In this document: positions 3,456-38,415 of the stretch, piece by piece | Layout: every line of letters starts with the position of its first letter | Position numbering within the stretch: the stretch's first letter is position 1 | NCBI GenBank assembly: GCA_043765655.1 | Contig: JAYUIW010000083.1 | Span: forward strand, 1-38,415 | Direction: 5' to 3' | Source of the DNA: a bacterium | GTDB lineage: Bacteria > Patescibacteriota > JACMRA01 | DNA length: 38,415 nt | Notes under the pieces: generated by a model | The model's input: only the letters and a program-made list of their open reading frames with translations | Databases searched by the model: none | Told to the model about the DNA's origin: nothing | Position numbers and translations under genes: made by a program

Positions 3456-3606
3456 AATAAGATAAAATTAAATTGTTATAAATTGTTTGTGATATTTTTG
3501 ATAAATTTGTAAAGTGTTTTGTAAAATTAGTATTTGTAATTTTTTGCTTTGTAAAATGTTTTTTGGGAAGGTTGTTTTTGGCTGAATTGCTTGTATCTTT
3601 GCTATG

Positions 3607-4247
3607 CTGTCATTCTGAGCAAATGCGAAGAATCCCTTGTTGTTCAAGACACACTTCCAACCATGTCATCCTGAATTTAGTTCAGGATCTAAGAAGGTTT
3701 TTTTAAGCTGTCATTCTGAGCAAATGCGAAGAATCCCCTGTTGTTCAGACTGAACTTTCACATGAGCCCCCGTCAACTTCGTTGACACCCCCTTAACAAG
3801 GGGGAACTCATAGTAAAAACTTTAATCTTGAATAAAAAACTCCAACTGTCATCTTGAATTTATCATGCCATGGCTTCCGTCGGAACAAGTCCGACTTGTA
3901 ACTAAGACTTTTCAGGATCTAGGAAGGTCGTAATTAATGTAAGGTAATTTTTGTAACAATAAAAGATTGAATAACTTTTACCTAAATAAGTATACAAAGT
4001 CCAATAATAATTTTTTTAGATTCTGAAACAAGTTCAGAATGACAAGTTATAAAGTATATCTTTTTAAGCCGTCATCTTGAGCGAAGCGAAAGATCTGTTG
4101 GTTGTTAAACTGCAAATAGTAACTTTTACAATATTTACAAATAACAGATTCTTCGTTGCACTCAGAATGACGAAATATTGAATTTGTTTTATTAAAGATA
4201 TGATTCAACTACCCCCAAGGCTTTACTTTCACCCCTACAAAGGGGTA
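3607..4247. repeat. Hairpin-module array. R1(+)3607-3646, R2(+)3664-3693, R1(+)3708-3747, R4(+)3766-3806, R2L(+)3846-3921, R2(-)4017-4044, R1(+)4069-4106, R1(-)4145-4172, R6-like 4212-4247
   Basis: Each module matched by eye to copies elsewhere in the window. The array sits in the 1.5-kb non-coding gap between rnj and tRNA-Phe. Confidence 0.85.
3846..3921 (+). repeat. R2L copy 1: R2 hairpin whose loop carries a ~50-nt insert containing the GTCGGA-ACAAG-TCCGAC hairpin
   Basis: Aligns with 13339-13416, 17804-17879, 30509-30586 and 34442-34518. All five copies are on the + strand. Confidence 0.85.
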
Positions 4248-5062: not shown

Positions 5063-5078
5063 ATATTAGGTTTCTAAT

Positions 5079-5249
5079 TCCCCTTTTTCTAAAAGGGCTG
5101 TCAACAAAGTTGACGGGGTATTTTTTGAAGTTTGGCTTGAACAACAGGGGATTCTTCACATTCGTTCAGAATGACAGTTTGTTTTGGGCTTTTTAGTTGT
5201 TGTTTACTTTGAACAACAGGGGATTCTTCGCGATGCTCAGAATGACTGT
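5079..5249 (-). repeat. Hairpin-module array: R4(-)5079-5120, R1(-)5137-5177, R1(-)5209-5249
   Basis: Reverse complements of the R4 and R1 consensus. ORFs 4987..5196 and 5101..5328 are read-through artefacts of these repeats and of the tRNA. Confidence 0.85.
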
Positions 5250-5290
5250 TAAAAGGTTGGTGACGATGAAAGAAATAAAAATTAAAGCTT

Positions 5291-7815: not shown

Positions 7816-8150
7816 CCCCTCTTATAAGGGGGTACAATTTCAAAAAATACTGTCACCCTATTTTTTACACTGTCATCTTGAGCATAGCGAAAGATCCCCT
7901 GTTGTTCAAACCAAAACTCCCACTGTCATTCTGAGCAAAGCGAAGAATCCCCTAGCTTTTGAGTTTATACAACCCCCAAGCTTCGCTTGACCCCTTCGGA
8001 TACATGCGTCGCCGTATCAAGTACGGCTGTACCAGGGTCTTCAAAAGGGGTATGCTCCCAAAAAACTGTCATCTTGAGCAAGTGAGAAGTGGGTTCGGGT
8101 TTCCCGAACAAAGCATTCGCCACGACATGCGAAATACTCCCTGTTGTTCA
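7816..8150 (+). repeat. Hairpin-module array. R7/R3-like 7816-7832, R1 7870-7908, R1 7923-7953, R4/R6-like 7971-7994, R5 7991-8050, R1 with a ~48-nt loop insert 8066-8150
   Basis: All modules are in + orientation, downstream of the phosphohexomutase gene. ORFs 7959..8165 and 8041..8241 are artefacts of this array. Confidence 0.85.
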
Positions 8151-8200
8151 AACCAAGTCTATTAATCAAAAATATACACTTGGTTAATGAAAGTAAAAAG

Positions 8201-9136: not shown

Positions 9137-9952
9137 CTATAAACTCAAATTTTGAACCACTAATTTTTTGAGACAATTAGCATTATTGAGTTCGTGACTC
9201 TTCAGAACATTTTGGATTAATTTTGCGACCGAAGTATCTAATTTTTCTTTATAAATAAAAGTCAGATTAGTTTCTAACAACCACAACCAAAAATCCAGTT
9301 CATAGCGTTCGACATCGCTGAGTTTATCAATCGTCAAGAAGTTTTTTTGGAGTAATATTCCAATCGCTTCTTTGGGATCTGGGAGAATTTTTTTAACTTT
9401 GGTGAGTAGATTTTGGTCGATGTTGGCAATTGAGAATTCACTAGTTAGGTTCTGAGTTACACACCGCGAGAGAATGGTTGGAAGAACTTCGCTACGACTT
9501 TGGGCAGTGAGAATAATAAATAAATTGGTTGGTGGTTCCTCGATTAGTTTGAGCATTCCTTCCTGAAGCGTTGTTGAATATTGGCTAAGATCTCCTAGAA
9601 TTAGCAAAGTTGGAGTTGAGTAGTTTTGGTAAACATCGCTGGCAACGAATTGGCGGAATTGCTCCTTGGCGGAGTCTGTAGAATCTTTGATATTTTCAAA
9701 AAGGATAACTTTTTTGTCCATTTTGGCGTTTTCTAGAATTTCCAAGTTTGGTTTAAGCTTAGTTAATTCATTTATATCTAGCCATTTTGAATTTGAGCTA
9801 GAACTATTATCAAAACATTGTCCAAAAAACTGCACTAAAATTGAATTAAAATTATTAGTATCAAGTTTTGTTTGGGTGATTATTAAGTGAGAGTGGATCA
9901 TAGGGTTGGGATTGGGTGGTGGTGTTTTTAATTTGAAAAAGGCTAATTTCAA
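9137..9952 (-). CDS. holB: DNA polymerase III delta-prime subunit-like clamp-loader protein
   Basis: LKLIEEPPTNLFIILTAQSRSEVLPTILSRC matches the delta-prime LK.LEEPP....L.......LL.TI.SRC box. The annotated start is TTG, directly abutting an R2 repeat. The ATG at 9901 (MIHSHL..) is a more likely start. Confidence 0.7.
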   Translation of the reverse strand: MKLAFFKLKTPPPNPNPMIHSHLIITQTKLDTNNFNSILVQFFGQCFDNSSSSNSKWLDINELTKLKPNLEILENAKMDKKVILFENIKDSTDSAKEQFRQFVASDVYQNYSTPTLLILGDLSQYSTTLQEGMLKLIEEPPTNLFIILTAQSRSEVLPTILSRCVTQNLTSEFSIANIDQNLLTKVKKILPDPKEAIGILLQKNFLTIDKLSDVERYELDFWLWLLETNLTFIYKEKLDTSVAKLIQNVLKSHELNNANCLKKLVVQNLSL

Positions 9953-10259
9953 CTGTCATCCTAAACTTGTTTCAGGATCTAAAATAGTAATTATTAGAAT
10001 TTATGGTCAAAAATTTACAGGTTTCGTTAAAAAATAAATTTAAGATTAAGATTTGTTATCAGGCTTACAATCTCTTAAAACAACCTTTTTAGATCCTGAA
10101 ACAAGTTCAGGATGACATAGTGGGAGTTTCAGCTTGAACAACAGGGGATTCTTCGGTTCCCTCAGAATGACAGTTTGTTTTAGGATTGTACCCCCTAGCC
10201 CCCTGACAGGGGGAATTATTTGGAATATAGGGGATCTTTCGCTTCGCTCAAGATGACAG
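9953..10259. repeat. Hairpin-module array. R2(+)9953-9985, R2(-)10090-10117, R1(-)10133-10173, R7 10198-10213, R1(-)10229-10259
   Basis: Matches to the R1/R2/R7 consensus. ORF 10046..10318 is an artefact of this array. Confidence 0.85.
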
Positions 10260-10314
10260 CGTGATGGAATTTTTAAGATGAAAGTATAAAAAATATAAAT
10301 TAAGCTTTGATGCT

Positions 10315-11942: not shown

Positions 11943-12056
11943 GTATACCAATATCACTTTCAACTTTTACAAAAAACTTCAAAAAGCAAATAAATGTTTT
12001 TACTTCAAAGTATTTTTGAGTAAAAGTCAGTCAAAGTTCATATGGGTTTGGGTATA
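11943..12056 (+). repeat. R8 copy 1: ~115-nt long imperfect hairpin element, 83 nt upstream of guaA
   Basis: Aligns along its full length with 25298-25413 and 28953-29070. The arms TATACCAATATCACTTTCAACTTTTACAAAA and TTTTTGAGTAAAAGTCAGTCAAAGTTCATATGGGTTTGGGTATA pair. Confidence 0.85.
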
Positions 12057-12138: not shown

Positions 12139-13140
12139 ATGTATAATAAGGTTTTGGTGCTAAATTATGGTTCGCAGTTCACACAGCTAATAGCTCGTCG
12201 AGTTCGCGAATTAGGTGTTTATTCTGAGATTAAGGATTGTGATTTTCCTTTTGAAAGTATTATTGCAGACACGTCAATCAAGGCAATTATTCTCTCTGGT
12301 GGTCCGCATTCTGTGTACGAACAAGATGCACCCAATATTGACAAGAGGATATTGGAGAGTGGTTTGCCAATCTTTGGGATCTGTTACGGGCAACAGACCA
12401 TCTCGCACGTTATGGGTGGCAAAGTCGAAACCGCCGACAAAGGCGAATACGGCAAAGGTAATCTAGAAATTAACGAGCTTGGACTTCAGACTCTTTTTGA
12501 GGGAATTAGTCCTGCAACTCAGGTTTGGCAATCACACCGTGATCACGTAACAACACTGCCAGATGGATTTCAATCTCTCGGTAGTAGTGAGAATTGTCCC
12601 AACGCCGCTATTGGTAATATTGAAGCCAAGATCTACGGAGTGCAGTATCATCCAGAGGTTGTACATTCGCTTGACGGTTCCAAGGTTCTAGCTAATTTCT
12701 TATTCAAAGTAGCGGGAATTAATCCGAATTGGAATACTACATCCTATATCAACGATCAAATGCTCAAAATCCAGACTCAAGTCGGTAGCGATAAAGTCTT
12801 GTGTGGACTATCTGGTGGAGTTGACTCTTCGGTCGTGGCAGCACTGGTCCAAAAAGCAATTCCTGGACAGATTCACTGCGTTTTTGTAGATAACGGACTT
12901 CTGAGAATGAACGAAAAAGAAGAAGTAGAAGAAGTTTTTAGGAATCACTTCAAAATTGAATTAACCGTAGCTGATGCTAGTGAGATTTTCTTAGATAGGC
13001 TAACGAGAGTAACAGACCCAGAAACCAAACGTAAAATAATTGGTAATACCTTTGTAGAAGTCTTCGATCTCGCCAAAACCAGCCTGAATCAAGAAATTAA
13101 AATCACCAAGGATTTGAATATTGAGATTGTTAAGACGTAG
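12139..13140 (+). CDS. guaA: GMP synthase, C-terminally truncated: GATase domain plus the first part of the ATP-pyrophosphatase domain only
   Basis: GATase motifs (GICYG, H..E triad region), the PP-loop SGGVDSSV, and KRKIIGNTFVEVF. The ORF stops at 333 aa, where full-length GuaA continues with ..LAQGT.YPDVIES.. and the dimerisation domain (about 190 aa missing). The repeat array starts 13 nt after the stop. Confidence 0.85.
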   Translation: MYNKVLVLNYGSQFTQLIARRVRELGVYSEIKDCDFPFESIIADTSIKAIILSGGPHSVYEQDAPNIDKRILESGLPIFGICYGQQTISHVMGGKVETADKGEYGKGNLEINELGLQTLFEGISPATQVWQSHRDHVTTLPDGFQSLGSSENCPNAAIGNIEAKIYGVQYHPEVVHSLDGSKVLANFLFKVAGINPNWNTTSYINDQMLKIQTQVGSDKVLCGLSGGVDSSVVAALVQKAIPGQIHCVFVDNGLLRMNEKEEVEEVFRNHFKIELTVADASEIFLDRLTRVTDPETKRKIIGNTFVEVFDLAKTSLNQEIKITKDLNIEIVKT

Positions 13141-13152
13141 GCTATTAAAGCG

Positions 13153-13645
13153 ACCCTCGGCACTTCGTGCCACTCCCTACATAGGGAGACCAAAACCACA
13201 GCTGTCATCTTGAGCGAAGCGAAAGATCCCCTGCTGTTCAGAATTTACTACCATTAGAACCCCTGTCAACTTCGTTGACATCCCCTTAATAAGGGGAAAC
13301 TTATAGCAAAAACTTTGATTTTGAGATAAAAACTTCCACTGTCATCCTGAACTTGTCATGTTAGAACCTATCGTCGGAACAAGTTCGACTTGCAACCAGT
13401 TACTTTTCAGGATCTAAAAAGATTGTTTTATGCTGTCATTCTGAACGAATGTGAAGAATCCCCTGTTGTTAGCTATAAAGCATGAACTATATTCACCCTG
13501 TCAGAGGGTTAGGCAGTACAAAAAAACATTTAAAATTGAATCAAACCAACAGATCTTTCGCTATGCTCAAGATGACGAAATAATAACTTTTAACATAAAA
13601 CAAAATCCCCGAGCCATTAGGCTCATCCCTTTATCAAGAGGTAAC
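13153..13645. repeat. Hairpin-module array. R4-variant 13153-13189, R1(+)13202-13240, R4(+)13260-13300, R2L(+)13339-13416, R1(+)13433-13470, R7 13496-13508, R1(-)13544-13578, R3(+)13602-13645
   Basis: This array fills the whole guaA-prs gap. ORFs 13451..13723 and 13623..13874 are artefacts of it. Confidence 0.85.
13339..13416 (+). repeat. R2L copy 2
   Basis: CTGTCATCCTGAACTTGTCATGTTAGAACCTATCGTCGGAACAAGTTCGACTTGCAACCAGTTACTTTTCAGGATCTA. Confidence 0.85.
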
Positions 13646-13695
13646 AAAAAACACTTTTTACCCCAAAAAACCCCAACTCCACAACATCCACCAAT

Positions 13696-16241: not shown

Positions 16242-16332
16242 TGTTAGAATTAGTTCGGTGTTAAAGAACCAGCAAGTTAGTTTTGGTTATGAAAAGTTTG
16301 TATTTAGGGTGACAGCGTTTTTTGGAGAATTT

Positions 16333-16527
16333 CTCTTTTTGTAAAAGGGGTGTCAACGAAGTTGACGGGGTTGTGTTTGCAGTGAATTTTGAACAACAGG
16401 GGATTCTTCCCGATGCTCAGAATGACAACCTTAAAACAACTTTTTTAGATCCTGAAATAAATTCAGGATGACAGTGGTAGTTTTTATTCAAGAGCTGGGG
16501 TATTCTTCGTTACACTCAAGATGACAG
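16333..16527 (-). repeat. Hairpin-module array: R4(-)16333-16370, R1(-)16389-16428, R2(-)16446-16474, R1(-)16489-16527
   Basis: Reverse complements of the consensus modules. The R2 flank AAAACAAC(C)TTTTT is shared with the copies at 10078 and 17971. Confidence 0.85.
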
Positions 16528-16554
16528 TTTTTTAGATAATATTCAAAAAAGAAC

Positions 16555-17713: not shown

Positions 17714-17803
17714 TGGATTGGTTTTGTGGTTTTGGAGAATACTTCTATGTAGATGTGAATGTAAATCCTTTGGGGATTTGGCTTTAGAATAAAGTTTTTA
17801 ACA

Positions 17804-17879
17804 TGTCATCCTCAACTTGTCGTACCGAGGCTATCGTCGGAACAAGTCCGACTTGTAACCAGTTACTTTTCAGGATCTA
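17804..17879 (+). repeat. R2L copy 3
   Basis: TGTCATCCTCAACTTGTCGTACCGAGGCTATCGTCGGAACAAGTCCGACTTGTAACCAGTTACTTTTCAGGATCTA. Confidence 0.85.
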
Positions 17880-17983
17880 AGATGACTTTTACTGAACTTC
17901 ACAGATTAATTTAAGATTTTCTTCAATTGGTGATTTTAATAATGTAATGTGCAAAAAATTATATCAGTATAAAACAACCTTTT

Positions 17984-18199
17984 TAGATCCTGAAACGAGT
18001 TCAGGATGACAGTTGTAGTTTTTGTTTTGAAATGAAAGTTTTTGTTACGAAATACCCTTTTTGAAGGGGTGAAGGCAAAGCCTTCGAGATTGTTGTAGTT
18101 TTGACTTGAACAACAGGGGATTCTTCACATTTGCTCAGAATGACGATTGGAGTTTTTGCTTAAGAGCTGGGGGATCTTTCGCTTTGCTCAAGATGACAG
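17984..18199 (-). repeat. Hairpin-module array: R2(-)17984-18012, R6(-)18054-18088, R1(-)18105-18146, R1(-)18160-18199
   Basis: Matches to consensus modules. The array lies between uppP and the recJ N-fragment. Confidence 0.85.
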
Positions 18200-18222
18200 T
18201 CTAAAAAGAAAAAAATTGTTTG

Positions 18223-19815: not shown

Positions 19816-19886
19816 ATAGTTAAAGAAATTAGGGTTTGTTGGGTTTTAAAAAATTTCTACACTTACTATTTTAACAGTCTAAAATA

Positions 19887-19929
19887 AAATCCCCGAGCCA
19901 TTCGGCTCACCCCTTTATCAAGGGGTAAC
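19887..19929 (+). repeat. R3 double-hairpin module
   Basis: AAAATCCCCGAGCCATTCGGCTCACCCCTTTATCAAGGGGTAAC, the cleanest R3 copy. Confidence 0.85.
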
Positions 19930-19963
19930 TTGTTTGAATATTTTTAGTAAAATTAATATTAAT

Positions 19964-20536
19964 CTAAAAAATGGATTCTGTGGTTTCTGCAAAAGTTACT
20001 TTTTGGGCTGTTGGCTTGGGCAATATTGCTTCTTTTTTAATGTGTAAATCAAAGAAGTGGATTGGTTTGCCGTCGATAATATTCTGGAACAAATTCTCAG
20101 TTAGGCGAACATCGTTGAGACAATAATCAACTAATTCTAGCCATTTATTTTCTTTGTGATACTTGGAATAAGTGGCATAATCGTCTGTTTTGAGGTCATC
20201 TTCAAAGTTAGCCTTACACAGATCGTTTAGTTTGGGTTTGTAACCAATACTAGCTTCCATTTCTAACATTATGTCATAGCTTGGAAGTTGCTTGAGATCG
20301 AAGGTTGCATACTTTTGGAGGACTGGCAGATCGAACCAAAGATGATTATAACCAACTACTAGATCGCATTCTCTAAGTATGTTTAAAAAAACACTGACGT
20401 CCTTTTCCAAAAAAACCAAATATCGGTCCAACCAGCTACAATAAGCCCCAATCACACTAACTCGGAATTCGTTGGTATCAATTTTGTTCAGACTGCTGGG
20501 ACTATAGGTTTCGATGTCAAAAGTTACATAATTCAT
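19964..20536 (-). CDS. DnaQ/RNase-H-fold 3'-5' exonuclease domain protein (PolB-exonuclease-like)
   Basis: Exo I FDIET, Exo II-like GYNHLWFDLPVL, Exo III-like DYCLNDVRLT. Confidence 0.6.
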   Translation of the reverse strand: MNYVTFDIETYSPSSLNKIDTNEFRVSVIGAYCSWLDRYLVFLEKDVSVFLNILRECDLVVGYNHLWFDLPVLQKYATFDLKQLPSYDIMLEMEASIGYKPKLNDLCKANFEDDLKTDDYATYSKYHKENKWLELVDYCLNDVRLTENLFQNIIDGKPIHFFDLHIKKEAILPKPTAQKVTFAETTESIF

Positions 20537-25297: not shown

Positions 25298-25413
25298 GTA
25301 TACCAATATCACTTTCAACTTTTACAAAATACCTTTCAAAAAGCAAATAAATTACTTTACTTCAAAGTATTTTTGAGTAAAAGTCAGTCAAAGTTAATAT
25401 GGGTTTTGGTATA
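25298..25413 (+). repeat. R8 copy 2: same orientation as copies 1 and 3, but both flanking genes are on the minus strand
   Basis: Nearly identical to copy 1 except for the central ~15 nt. Confidence 0.85.
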
Positions 25414-28659: not shown

Positions 28660-28952
28660 ATGTGTATTTGTTTGTGTTTATAATTTTTGTTTGTGTGTTT
28701 GTTTTAACACTTACTAATAAGTATACATCATATTTTTTCTTTTTGCAAATAGTGTGTGTAAAATAGTTATTTTTTGGCTTATTGTTCAATATTTTAGCTG
28801 ATATTTTGGTTGAGCTCGACTGTCATTAATTTCTAATTTACCTTAGTTTTTTGGTTGATCACCAAATATGGTTCAAATTAATATAGTTCAAACATTAAGA
28901 ATTGACAATTATTATAAGATAGGGCATACTAAAATAGATAAGTCACAACAAA

Positions 28953-29070
28953 GTACACCGATATCACTTTCAACTTTTACAAAATATTCTTTAAAAAAAT
29001 GACTAAATACCCTTATTTAAAAATATTTTTGAGTCAAAGTCAGTCAAAGTTCATATGGGTTTTTGGTGCA
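28953..29070 (+). repeat. R8 copy 3: 77 nt upstream of glyA
   Basis: Shares ATATCACTTTCAACTTTTACAAAA and TATTTTTGAGT.AAAGTCAGTCAAAGTTCATATGGGTTT with copies 1 and 2. The centre and outer stem differ but still pair. Confidence 0.85.
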
Positions 29071-29146: not shown

Positions 29147-30454
29147 ATGTCTCACTCAACACTCAACGCCGACACCAACTTTATCCAACATCTTACAGCT
29201 CACGAATACGATCGCCAACGTGATTCTATCTCATTAATCGCCTCCGAGAACACACCATCGCCTAAGGTTATTGACTGTCTTGGTGGTATTAATCCCGAGG
29301 GAATTCGCTCGCTGTGGTCCAACAAGTATGGCGAAGGTTACCCTGGCAAACGCTACTACGCAGGCAATCAATATACGGATGAACTAGAATCCTTTGTCCA
29401 AAAAAAAGCCTTAGAAGTCTTCGGGCCAGTGGCAGTCGAGGAATACGCTGTTAATCTTCAGATGAATGCAGGCTCAATGGCCAATATGATGGTTTATCTC
29501 TCGGTTCTAGAATACGGCGATATGGTTGTCTCGCTGAACGTTGCCAACGGTGGACACATCTCTCACCTGCATACAACTAGTGCCTGGAACAAGTTCTTCA
29601 AGTACGCTAACTATGATCTAGTAGAAACTGAGCCGAATACCTTCGAAATCGACTACCAAGACTATTGCCAAAAAATCTTAGACAACAAGCCAAAACTGGT
29701 AATTATCGGTTGTTCGTCTTATCCTCGGGAAATCAAAAATTACAAAGAGATGATTGAGTTCGCCCACGCCAATGGAGCTCTGGTTCTATGTGATATTGCT
29801 CATATTAATGGTCTAGTTGCGGCTGGACTACACGCTACGCCTTTTTTGAGTGGAGTTAGTGGAGCTGACTTTGTATCGATGACTACTCACAAGACTTTCC
29901 GTGGCCCGCGTGGTGCGATGCTGTTTTTCAAAAAAGAATTCGAAACTGTAGTCAACAAAACAGTCTTCCCTGGAACTTCGGGTGGTCCGCACTTTAACAA
30001 AATTGCTGGTATCGGACAAGCTTGTCTGGAGATCCTTGGCGAAGATGTGTATCCTGATGGACGCGACTTCAAGACTTATTCCGCTGATGTTCTACGCCAA
30101 ACCAAGTTACTAGAAACTACACTTGTCAACGCTGGTCTCAAGATTATCTCTCCGACAGAGACTCACTTAATGTTATGTGTGCTTCCTGATGAATCTGACT
30201 CTCTAGTTACCCAAAAAAGTCTTGATGAAATCGACATTGTCTGTAACCGCAACTCTATTCCTTTTGAGAAAAAATCAATGTGGAAACCTTCGGGCTTGAG
30301 ATTAGGAACCGCCGCTGTAACTAGTCGTGGAATTAGCGATGAACAAATCGTCGAACTAGGTAACATTATTGCAGATTGTGTCAAAGGTGGCGACAAAGTC
30401 GAACTATCAACTAGAGTCAAACAAATTGTAGACAATATTAACTGGTGGTATTAA
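29147..30454 (+). CDS. glyA: Serine hydroxymethyltransferase
   Basis: SLIASEN, the PLP-lysine motif TTHKTFRGPRG, and overall SHMT collinearity. Confidence 0.95.
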   Translation: MSHSTLNADTNFIQHLTAHEYDRQRDSISLIASENTPSPKVIDCLGGINPEGIRSLWSNKYGEGYPGKRYYAGNQYTDELESFVQKKALEVFGPVAVEEYAVNLQMNAGSMANMMVYLSVLEYGDMVVSLNVANGGHISHLHTTSAWNKFFKYANYDLVETEPNTFEIDYQDYCQKILDNKPKLVIIGCSSYPREIKNYKEMIEFAHANGALVLCDIAHINGLVAAGLHATPFLSGVSGADFVSMTTHKTFRGPRGAMLFFKKEFETVVNKTVFPGTSGGPHFNKIAGIGQACLEILGEDVYPDGRDFKTYSADVLRQTKLLETTLVNAGLKIISPTETHLMLCVLPDESDSLVTQKSLDEIDIVCNRNSIPFEKKSMWKPSGLRLGTAAVTSRGISDEQIVELGNIIADCVKGGDKVELSTRVKQIVDNINWWY

Positions 30455-30473: not shown

Positions 30474-30946
30474 AAAATCCCCGAGTCACTAGGCTCACCT
30501 CCATCATACTGTCATTCTGAACTCGTCGTGCTAAAACCTATCGTCGGAACAAGTCCGACTTGCAACCAGTTACTTTTCAGGATCTAAAAAACTCCAAATT
30601 AGTTGTCATTCTGAGCGTAGCAAAGAATCCCCTGTTGTACACAATACACTCCAACCATGTCATCCTGAACTTGTTTCAGGATCTAAAAAAGTTATTAATA
30701 AGTTTCAGGATCTAAATTTGAGGTTTCGTAAATGAGGATATTAAGTTAGTTATACCCGTTTTATTATTTATCTTCCAAAATAAAATCCCCGAGCCATTCG
30801 GCTCACCCCTTTGGACACGTGCGTCGCCGTATCAAGTACGGCTGTACCAGTATCTTCAAAAAGGGGTAACAACCCCGAAGGCTTTGCCTTCACCTCCCCC
30901 CTGCACATGCATCGCCGTATCAAGTAAGGCTTTACCAGATCAAAAA
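30474..30946 (+). repeat. Hairpin-module array. R3(partial)30474-30505, R2L 30509-30586, R1 30603-30639, R2 30658-30690, half-R2 30702-30716, R3 with R5 insert 30782-30870, R6 30873-30897, R5-variant 30896-30946
   Basis: All modules are in + orientation. The array fills the glyA to pseudouridine-synthase gap. Confidence 0.85.
30509..30586 (+). repeat. R2L copy 4
   Basis: CTGTCATTCTGAACTCGTCGTGCTAAAACCTATCGTCGGAACAAGTCCGACTTGCAACCAGTTACTTTTCAGGATCTA. Confidence 0.85.
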
Positions 30947-34347: not shown

Positions 34348-34640
34348 CTCCCTGTCAGGGGGTACAAAAAAAGTTGTTTTTACACTGTCATTCTGAACGA
34401 ATGTGAAGAATCCCCTGTTGTTTAATGCAAAGTGCGAATTGTGTCATCCTAAATTTGTCGTGCTAGAACCTCTCGTCGGAACAAGTCCGACTTGCAACCA
34501 ATTACTTTTCAGGATCTAAAAAAGTTGTTTCTAAAGTTTTAGCTATATATTAAAATATACTTCTAAATAACCATAACACTAAAAACAACTATTTTTTAAC
34601 AAACAACCAACAGATCTTTCGTTACACTCAAGATGACGAT
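34348..34640. repeat. Hairpin-module array: R7 34348-34365, R1(+)34385-34422, R2L(+)34442-34518, R1(-)34606-34640
   Basis: Matches to the consensus modules, in the GT39-gatC gap. Confidence 0.85.
34442..34518 (+). repeat. R2L copy 5
   Basis: TGTCATCCTAAATTTGTCGTGCTAGAACCTCTCGTCGGAACAAGTCCGACTTGCAACCAATTACTTTTCAGGATCTA. Confidence 0.85.
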
Positions 34641-38204: not shown

Positions 38205-38320
38205 ACTAGAAAATGATTTATTCACCCCTATATTCAGAGTAGTTTTGACCGTTGTAGTTGTGCTTTGTGGAATAGAGTTTATATCAACCCATAGAATATC
38301 ATCACATTTATCAAGCTCAT

Positions 38321-38415
38321 TACACCTAACCCACTCCTAATTACCTCATTAATTCAAAGGTTTTGATAATTTTTTCATAAAAATTGAGGCAGGTTGAAGC
38401 TAGTTTTAGAATATT
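38321..38415. repeat. Right arm of the 95-nt inverted repeat (partner 5-99)
   Basis: See the left arm. Reading outward from the window, both ends give the same sequence: TACACCTAACCCACTCCTAATTACC..TTAGAATATT. Confidence 0.9.

Follow-up and report, generated by a model that had tools for sequence, protein, structure and literature searches.

RUP of Streptococcus pneumoniae is a 107-bp MITE that was assigned to the insertion sequence IS630-Spn1 through the similarity of their ends and its TA targets (PMC2229807). The Correia/NEMIS elements of Neisseria and the ERIC/IRU elements of enterobacteria are 100-150 bp long, carry terminal inverted repeats and a terminal TA, duplicate their target, and give transcripts that fold as long hairpins (PMC2229807, table 1). 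We analyzed a dispersed repeat, R8, starting from a 38,415-nt stretch of DNA (the window) that constitutes contig C83 of the G000 assembly (1.05 Mb in 84 contigs, 35% G+C, about 74% complete).

By its design, R8 is closest to RUP. Both are AT-rich, non-coding, intergenic units of ~110 bp that occur in tens to about 100 copies; both have terminal inverted repeats resembling the ends of IS630-family insertion sequences, with 5'-TA-3' at both termini and insertion at TA; both insert into other repeats and IS elements; and in both cases the transposase is assigned by a similar indirect logic (PMC2229807). No sequence relationship was seen between the two. R8 further differs from RUP in its host, an uncultivated bacterium with a ~1-Mb genome from glacier-fed streams, in that its best-matching insertion sequence was seen in a sister species instead of the same assembly, and in that at least two further MITE families of the genome have the same termini. 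The Correia/NEMIS and ERIC/IRU elements resemble R8 in size, TA termini and hairpins, and are able to insert in leaders and 3' UTRs. Correia elements carry IHF sites and outward promoters and are cleaved by RNase III, whereas a promoter scan found no convincing outward promoter in R8. We propose that R8 is a non-autonomous, RUP-like MITE of the IS630/Tc1-mariner kind, probably mobilized by an IS630-family transposase, and assign this reading a probability of about 0.87.

R8 copies in the window

The three copies of ~115 nt described in the earlier note were confirmed at their reported places, the window alignment spanning about 113-117 nt. The number three holds within the window only: a search of the whole G000 assembly by BLAST and iterated nhmmer gave 37 matches, 28 full-length and 9 partial, distributed over 30 of the 84 contigs. 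All three window copies have the same orientation and each is able to fold into one long imperfect hairpin. The blocks previously described as conserved were found in the alignment, and the two halves of the element pair to form this hairpin.

Copy 1 (11944..12056, 113 nt with its flanking TA, TATACC...GGGTATA) scores 109.7 bits with the covariance model; its identity of 94.8% to the family consensus marks it as a young copy. It lies 82 nt before the start of a guaA-like gene on the plus strand (12139..13140, ATG at 12139), which encodes a GATase domain and the start of an ATP-pyrophosphatase domain in 333 aa. Truncation of guaA by repeats was considered and rejected, as an open frame of 334-344 aa is present in all five species of the genus. 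The GMP_synt_C domain is found in a separate gene of ~400 aa, which is convergent and adjacent in the sister genome G001 and located on another contig in G000 (C36:5311-5577). The arrangement suggests a GMP synthase that is split or duplicated.

Copy 2 (25299..25413, 115 nt, TATACC...TGGTATA) is 98.3% identical to the consensus and scores 133.7 bits. It has minus-strand neighbours on both sides, a cytidylate-kinase-like gene and a gene of 414 aa, and is placed after the stop of the latter and before its terminator. The minus-strand terminator proposed near this copy was recovered by our scan as an intrinsic-terminator-like hairpin followed by a T-run (25297-25278), which directly abuts R8.

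Copy 3 (28954..29070, 117 nt, TACACC...GGTGCA) is an older copy with 83.5% identity to the consensus and a score of 99.4 bits. It precedes by 76 nt the ATG (29147) of glyA, encoding serine hydroxymethyltransferase (29147..30454, plus strand, 435 aa). The spacings of 83 and 77 nt previously reported as equal are thus similar but not identical, and each is one nucleotide shorter. The TACACC/GGTGCA outer stem does contain the reported compensated change of one pair from T-A to C-G, but also an additional new A/C mismatch. It belongs to the glyA copy; the earlier note had first called the copy at 25298 the third, so that its numbering is inconsistent. The proposed promoter-like site TTGACA-17-CATACT was recovered by scan on the plus strand at 28902..28930, and copy 3 is placed between this site and glyA. 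Boxes resembling the upstream site (TTGACAAT) precede glyA in two R8-free relatives (L063 and L064), suggesting that the glyA 5' leader was probably the target of the R8 insertion. The glyA upstream spacers were too diverged for the insertion to be delimited by direct alignment with the relatives.

A weak promoter-like sequence, TTGACT-16-TATTTT (9/12), is located inside copy 3 on the minus strand (29047-29020). It lies on the better-folding strand of R8, and the second hexamer is poorer in the R8 consensus.

Genome-wide R8 family and gene context

The R8 unit is a non-coding, AT-rich sequence (25-30% G+C) of 111-117 nt. A covariance model built from 26 copies gave 29 matches in G000. According to a crude ORF map, all copies are intergenic and none lies within a gene. 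The gene contexts comprise 15 tandem, 6 convergent and 5 divergent arrangements, a mix statistically indistinguishable from that of the length-weighted intergenic background (chi-square P = 0.24). Among the copies in tandem contexts, 9 are co-oriented with the genes and 6 opposed, and the G000 context counts revealed no preference of R8 for gene 3' ends or for an orientation relative to genes. The copies also differ in age: 12 have an identity of 94.8% or more to the consensus, the remainder 75-91%. Young and old R8 copies therefore coexist in this genome.

We surveyed the 26 genes whose 5' end faces an R8 copy. They include genes of DNA and RNA handling (a PIF1-like helicase, a beta-CASP RNase of the RNase J-like kind, uvrA, photolyase, tgt and a TrwB/HerA-like ATPase), nucleotide and one-carbon metabolism (CTP synthase pyrG, guaA, cmk, a carbamoyl-phosphate-synthase-like gene, carB-like, and glyA), and membrane and transport functions (an MFS transporter, VKOR, SPFH, fasciclin and a solute-binding protein), as well as NUDIX, a GT2 glycosyltransferase, a Der-like GTPase, ATP synthase beta (atpD) and several unknowns.

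R8 as a proposed leader RNA of guaA and glyA

The positions of copies 1 and 3, both in sense orientation shortly before guaA and glyA, had led to the suggestion that R8 is a cis-regulatory leader RNA, riboswitch- or attenuator-like, common to purine and one-carbon genes. The nucleotide and one-carbon genes, 5 of the 26 that face R8, are at most a nominal excess. This suggestion failed a refutation test set in advance, since the copies stand beside unrelated genes and in both orientations. The tabulated downstream genes are functionally diverse: the remaining 21 are unrelated to these pathways, the cmk and carB-like genes face R8 in the opposite orientation, and the six copies between convergent genes add to the evidence against a leader.

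The element is likewise not retained at orthologous genes. Among four related MAGs from glacier-fed streams, in which the glyA loci compared have 72-81% protein identity, no R8 was detected upstream of glyA with filters off and E-values up to 1; one of the four has an R8 copy downstream of this gene. No R8 was found near the guaA orthologs of all four sister genomes in the DNA fetched around them.

Comparison with Rfam matched no relevant family. At the gathering threshold the window contains two tRNAs only, and at E-values up to 1 the additional matches were chance snoRNA hits far below threshold. The purine, ZTP and THF riboswitches and other Rfam leaders thus resemble R8 only in the placement of two of its copies upstream of guaA and glyA, and differ from it by the missing Rfam match, by its absence from orthologous genes and by its presence in both orientations beside unrelated genes.

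The folding of R8 was also compared between strands. When folded as RNA, the reverse complement of the strand used in the earlier note is the better folder (mean -21.5 versus -14.2 kcal/mol over 28 copies), and mRNAs of guaA and glyA would carry the poorer-folding strand, which argues against the leader. RNAalifold gave a weak consensus of 13 pairs for 26 in-genome copies (-1.4 kcal/mol). Covariation among the in-genome copies did not exceed that of shuffles (87.4% versus 86.9% paired, with 31 of 500 shuffles as high), and these copies are therefore uninformative on selection.

Taken with the above, a shared leader RNA is very improbable. The guaA and glyA genes share no regulatory RNA here and are incidental neighbours of copies 1 and 3, which represent two independent insertions of different age, one in the guaA upstream spacer and one in the glyA leader. 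Any effect of R8 on either gene would be a side effect.

Termini and TA target duplication

Intact R8 copies begin with TATAC(C/T) and end with G(G/A)GTATA, and in a flank-included alignment the similarity starts and stops sharply at these positions. The two arms are terminal inverted repeats with imperfect complementarity along both. Several repeat families carry the same termini.

Two nested insertions provide the target sites. The copy at C18:10860-10974 interrupts another repeat, whose uninterrupted members (on C78, C29 and C61) read CCAGT-TA-TCTTTC, and the filled site reads ...CCATT-TA-[TAC...GGTA]-TA-TCTTTC... Conversely, in the R8 copy at C19:7443-7662 the loop is interrupted at AATT-TA-TTTGC by an inserted element of 107 nt, TATACC...GAGTATA. 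Both insertions indicate a duplication of the TA target, as read from two empty sites that were reconstructed from nested repeats and are not true alleles. In JGI metagenomes, an empty guaA allele was sought first and R8 core sequence of any kind second, each with 0 matches. Duplication of TA is a hallmark of IS630/Tc1-mariner elements.

The 107-nt element belongs to a further repeat family of ~107 nt with R8-like termini (TATACC...GAGTATA), which is found at 1315-1428 in the window and at C19:7506-7612 and C1:9226-9332 in G000. This family has an internal GC-rich hairpin (CCCCTTTTTGAAGGGG), and one of its copies is the one inserted at TA inside R8. Another family, ending in TATACTCAAACTCAGCCCAACTTTTAC, occurs at 30751-30870 in the window and at C78:3891-4007, C29:6807-6907 and C61:3348-3432. 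Its end resembles that of the G001 IS630-type element even more closely than the R8 end does, and the family hosts the R8 insertion at C18:10860.

Relationship to IS630-family insertion sequences

A transposase of the IS630 family is encoded in G000 at the edge of contig C14 (C14:2-1054), with HTH_Tnp_IS630 and DDE_3 domains in two frames parted by a stop. A second copy of the right end of this element lies at the edge of contig C57 (C57:5889-5983); only the right end is assembled, and the two right ends diverge exactly after ...GGAATGGGTATA. The element ends in GGGTATA, the terminal heptamer of R8, and shares with R8 only the outer 8 nt (TATACCCA). This insertion sequence is present in at least two copies and breaks the assembly.

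A more extensive match was found in the sister genome G001, where an IS630-type element (DDE_3, E = 2.7e-33) occurs at least five times, every copy being cut off by a contig end. Its DDE region has 45% amino acid identity to that of the G000 element. The end of the G001 element reads TA-TACCCAAACCCAACCCAACTTTTAC, and its copies have different flanks from the first position beyond the TA. One arm of R8 begins with TATACCCAAACCCA, a match of 14/14 to the G001 end (TATACCCAAACCCAACCCAACTTTTAC), and the other arm carries the CAACTTTTAC box of the same insertion sequence at the corresponding distance. No complete insertion sequence with both ends matching R8 was found, and no left IS end was recovered. 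Neither blastn nor tblastx detected the G001-type element in the assembled 1.05 Mb of G000, and no IS630 transposase was detected in the assembly of G004, which has 84 R8 copies; both assemblies are fragmented and estimated to be 64-74% complete, so that these absences weigh little. A complete IS630 element of another genus (L083, with a 26-nt TIR, TATAGCTAACC...) was also considered as a partner of R8 and set aside as a member of a different subgroup.

The MITE reading had earlier been offered as equally plausible to the leader RNA; it is supported, and made more specific, by the TA duplication and the IS630-family ends. The two halves of R8 are imperfect inverted repeats that bear the ends of an insertion sequence of the IS630 family. 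From the known chemistry of this family, a transposase supplied in trans would bind both ends of R8 and excise it by cut-and-paste, and the excised element would be pasted into a TA dinucleotide, which would thereby be duplicated.

A different transposase could be envisaged. G000 also encodes a Y1 transposase (Y1_Tnp), split over the ends of two contigs (C71:4-240 and C35:6-119) and flanked by GC-rich hairpins. Should R8 be a REP/PATE-like repeat, handled as single-stranded DNA by a Y1 transposase of the IS200/IS605 or RAYT type, the strand asymmetry of its hairpin could also be explained by G-T wobble in single-stranded DNA. However, the short GC-rich hairpins flanking the Y1 gene are unlike the AT-rich ends of R8, terminal inverted repeats and TA duplication are not made by Y1 elements, and the R8 ends match those of IS630. 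A REP/BIME or an IS200/IS605-derived palindrome was likewise rejected for an AT-rich element of 115 nt with terminal inverted repeats and TA duplication. We regard the probability of Y1-dependent mobility of R8 as close to nil; the Y1 transposase could partner another hairpin repeat family.

Hairpin pairing and strand asymmetry

Under mobilization by an IS630-family transposase, the long hairpin of R8 follows from its inverted-repeat build. The pairing reaches across the whole 55-nt arms, past the ~27-nt IS end, and is kept between subfamilies, which is more than simple transposase binding requires. In a cross-genome alignment 82.6% of cells pair, and 37 of the 46 pairs have changes on both sides; none of 500 shuffles reached the observed values, and slid controls were far lower. 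These counts are inflated, because the alignment was fitted to the model structure and the copies share common ancestry, and for this reason MAFFT-only consensus sequences of G000 and G004 were compared as well. With 75% identity between them, the two consensus sequences each form a full-length hairpin when folded as RNA (z = -4.3 and -3.1, respectively). Among the 41 pairs of the G000 hairpin, 23 are unchanged in G004, 6 are kept by one change and 3 by two, 7 are broken and 2 are gapped.

The better-folding strand is the same in G000 (9/9), G004 (22/29), G005 (5/6) and G017 (3/4), and this mild asymmetry is absent in G002 (3/6) and G001 (0/1). Cells with G-U outnumber those with A-C (220 versus 105). 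When folded as single-stranded DNA, the G004 consensus was no better than shuffles.

The inverted-repeat build of R8 is retained, as expected if both arms serve the same transposase. There is no more than a hint that pairing outside the ~27-nt IS-derived end is of importance as well. Roles as mRNA stabilizers, RNase III targets, terminator helpers and protein-binding sites have been described for Correia, ERIC and REP elements. By analogy, R8 might be a former MITE adopted by the host as a structured module in transcripts or DNA with one of these roles, for instance the stabilization of mRNA 3' ends. The both-side changes across genomes, the consensus pairs kept by single and double changes, the strand preference shared by four genomes and the excess of G-U over A-C cells would all fit such a module, as would the placement of copy 2 precisely between a stop codon and a terminator. 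Against it stand the inflation of the cross-genome counts, the seven broken pairs, the missing asymmetry in G002 and G001, and the single-stranded DNA fold of the G004 consensus. Moreover, the lack of bias in orientation (9 versus 6) and of any preference for 3' ends argues against a general host function at the RNA level, and we consider adoption by the host unlikely.

The compensated pairs beyond the IS-derived ends, together with a G-U asymmetry that is repeated in diverged subfamilies, are what hints at selection. It is doubtful, and at most a tentative idea, that selection on one strand maintains the hairpin as a module of structured RNA or single-stranded DNA employed by the host or by the element, such as a 3'-UTR stabilizer, a processing site or a transposition intermediate. 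If it were so, such modules would have come to make up much of the intergenic space in this lineage of ~1-Mb genomes.

Distribution of R8 among related genomes

The covariance model detected no R8 copies in G003, one in G001, 6 in G002, 29 in G000 and 84 in G004. Within the bacterial family, a further two genera have 6 and 4 copies, and no copies were found with this model in any of the remaining genomes of the family. BLAST searches of 16 genomes from other families of the phylum were negative. The copy number of R8 is therefore patchy, with species-specific bursts. In G004, an assembly of ~1.0 Mb in 250 contigs, at least 84 copies of an R8-related subfamily are present, many of them at contig ends, so that they break this assembly.

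Other repeat families and biological implications

The longer intergenic spacers of the window are mostly occupied by other dispersed repeat families, each with 11 to 72 BLAST matches in the 1.05-Mb genome. The repeat-filled spacers are 1-99, 1318-1470, 3599-4172, 5075-5255, 7859-8151, 9944-10268, 13193-13650, 16328-16536, 17793-18209, 19863-19971, 30507-30870, 34367-34559 and 38318-38415. G000 is unusually repeat-laden for its size. Several of its MITE families, with TA-TAC(C/T)...GTA-TA ends, are apparently fed by IS630-family transposases.

For guaA and glyA, the assignment of R8 to the MITEs removes the false lead of a shared regulatory RNA. More broadly, the MITE families give a handle on the fragmentation of assemblies and on the patterned intergenic DNA in G000 and its relatives. 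They bloom unequally among sister species, R8 alone ranging from 0 to 84 copies in genomes of ~1 Mb, and MITE loads this high are unusual for very small genomes. Strains might be distinguished by repeats of the R8 type, which could also preserve a natural history of transposon bursts in uncultivated bacteria living in streams. R8 itself is an ordinary kind of element; more notable is how densely MITE families populate the ~1-Mb genomes of this lineage.
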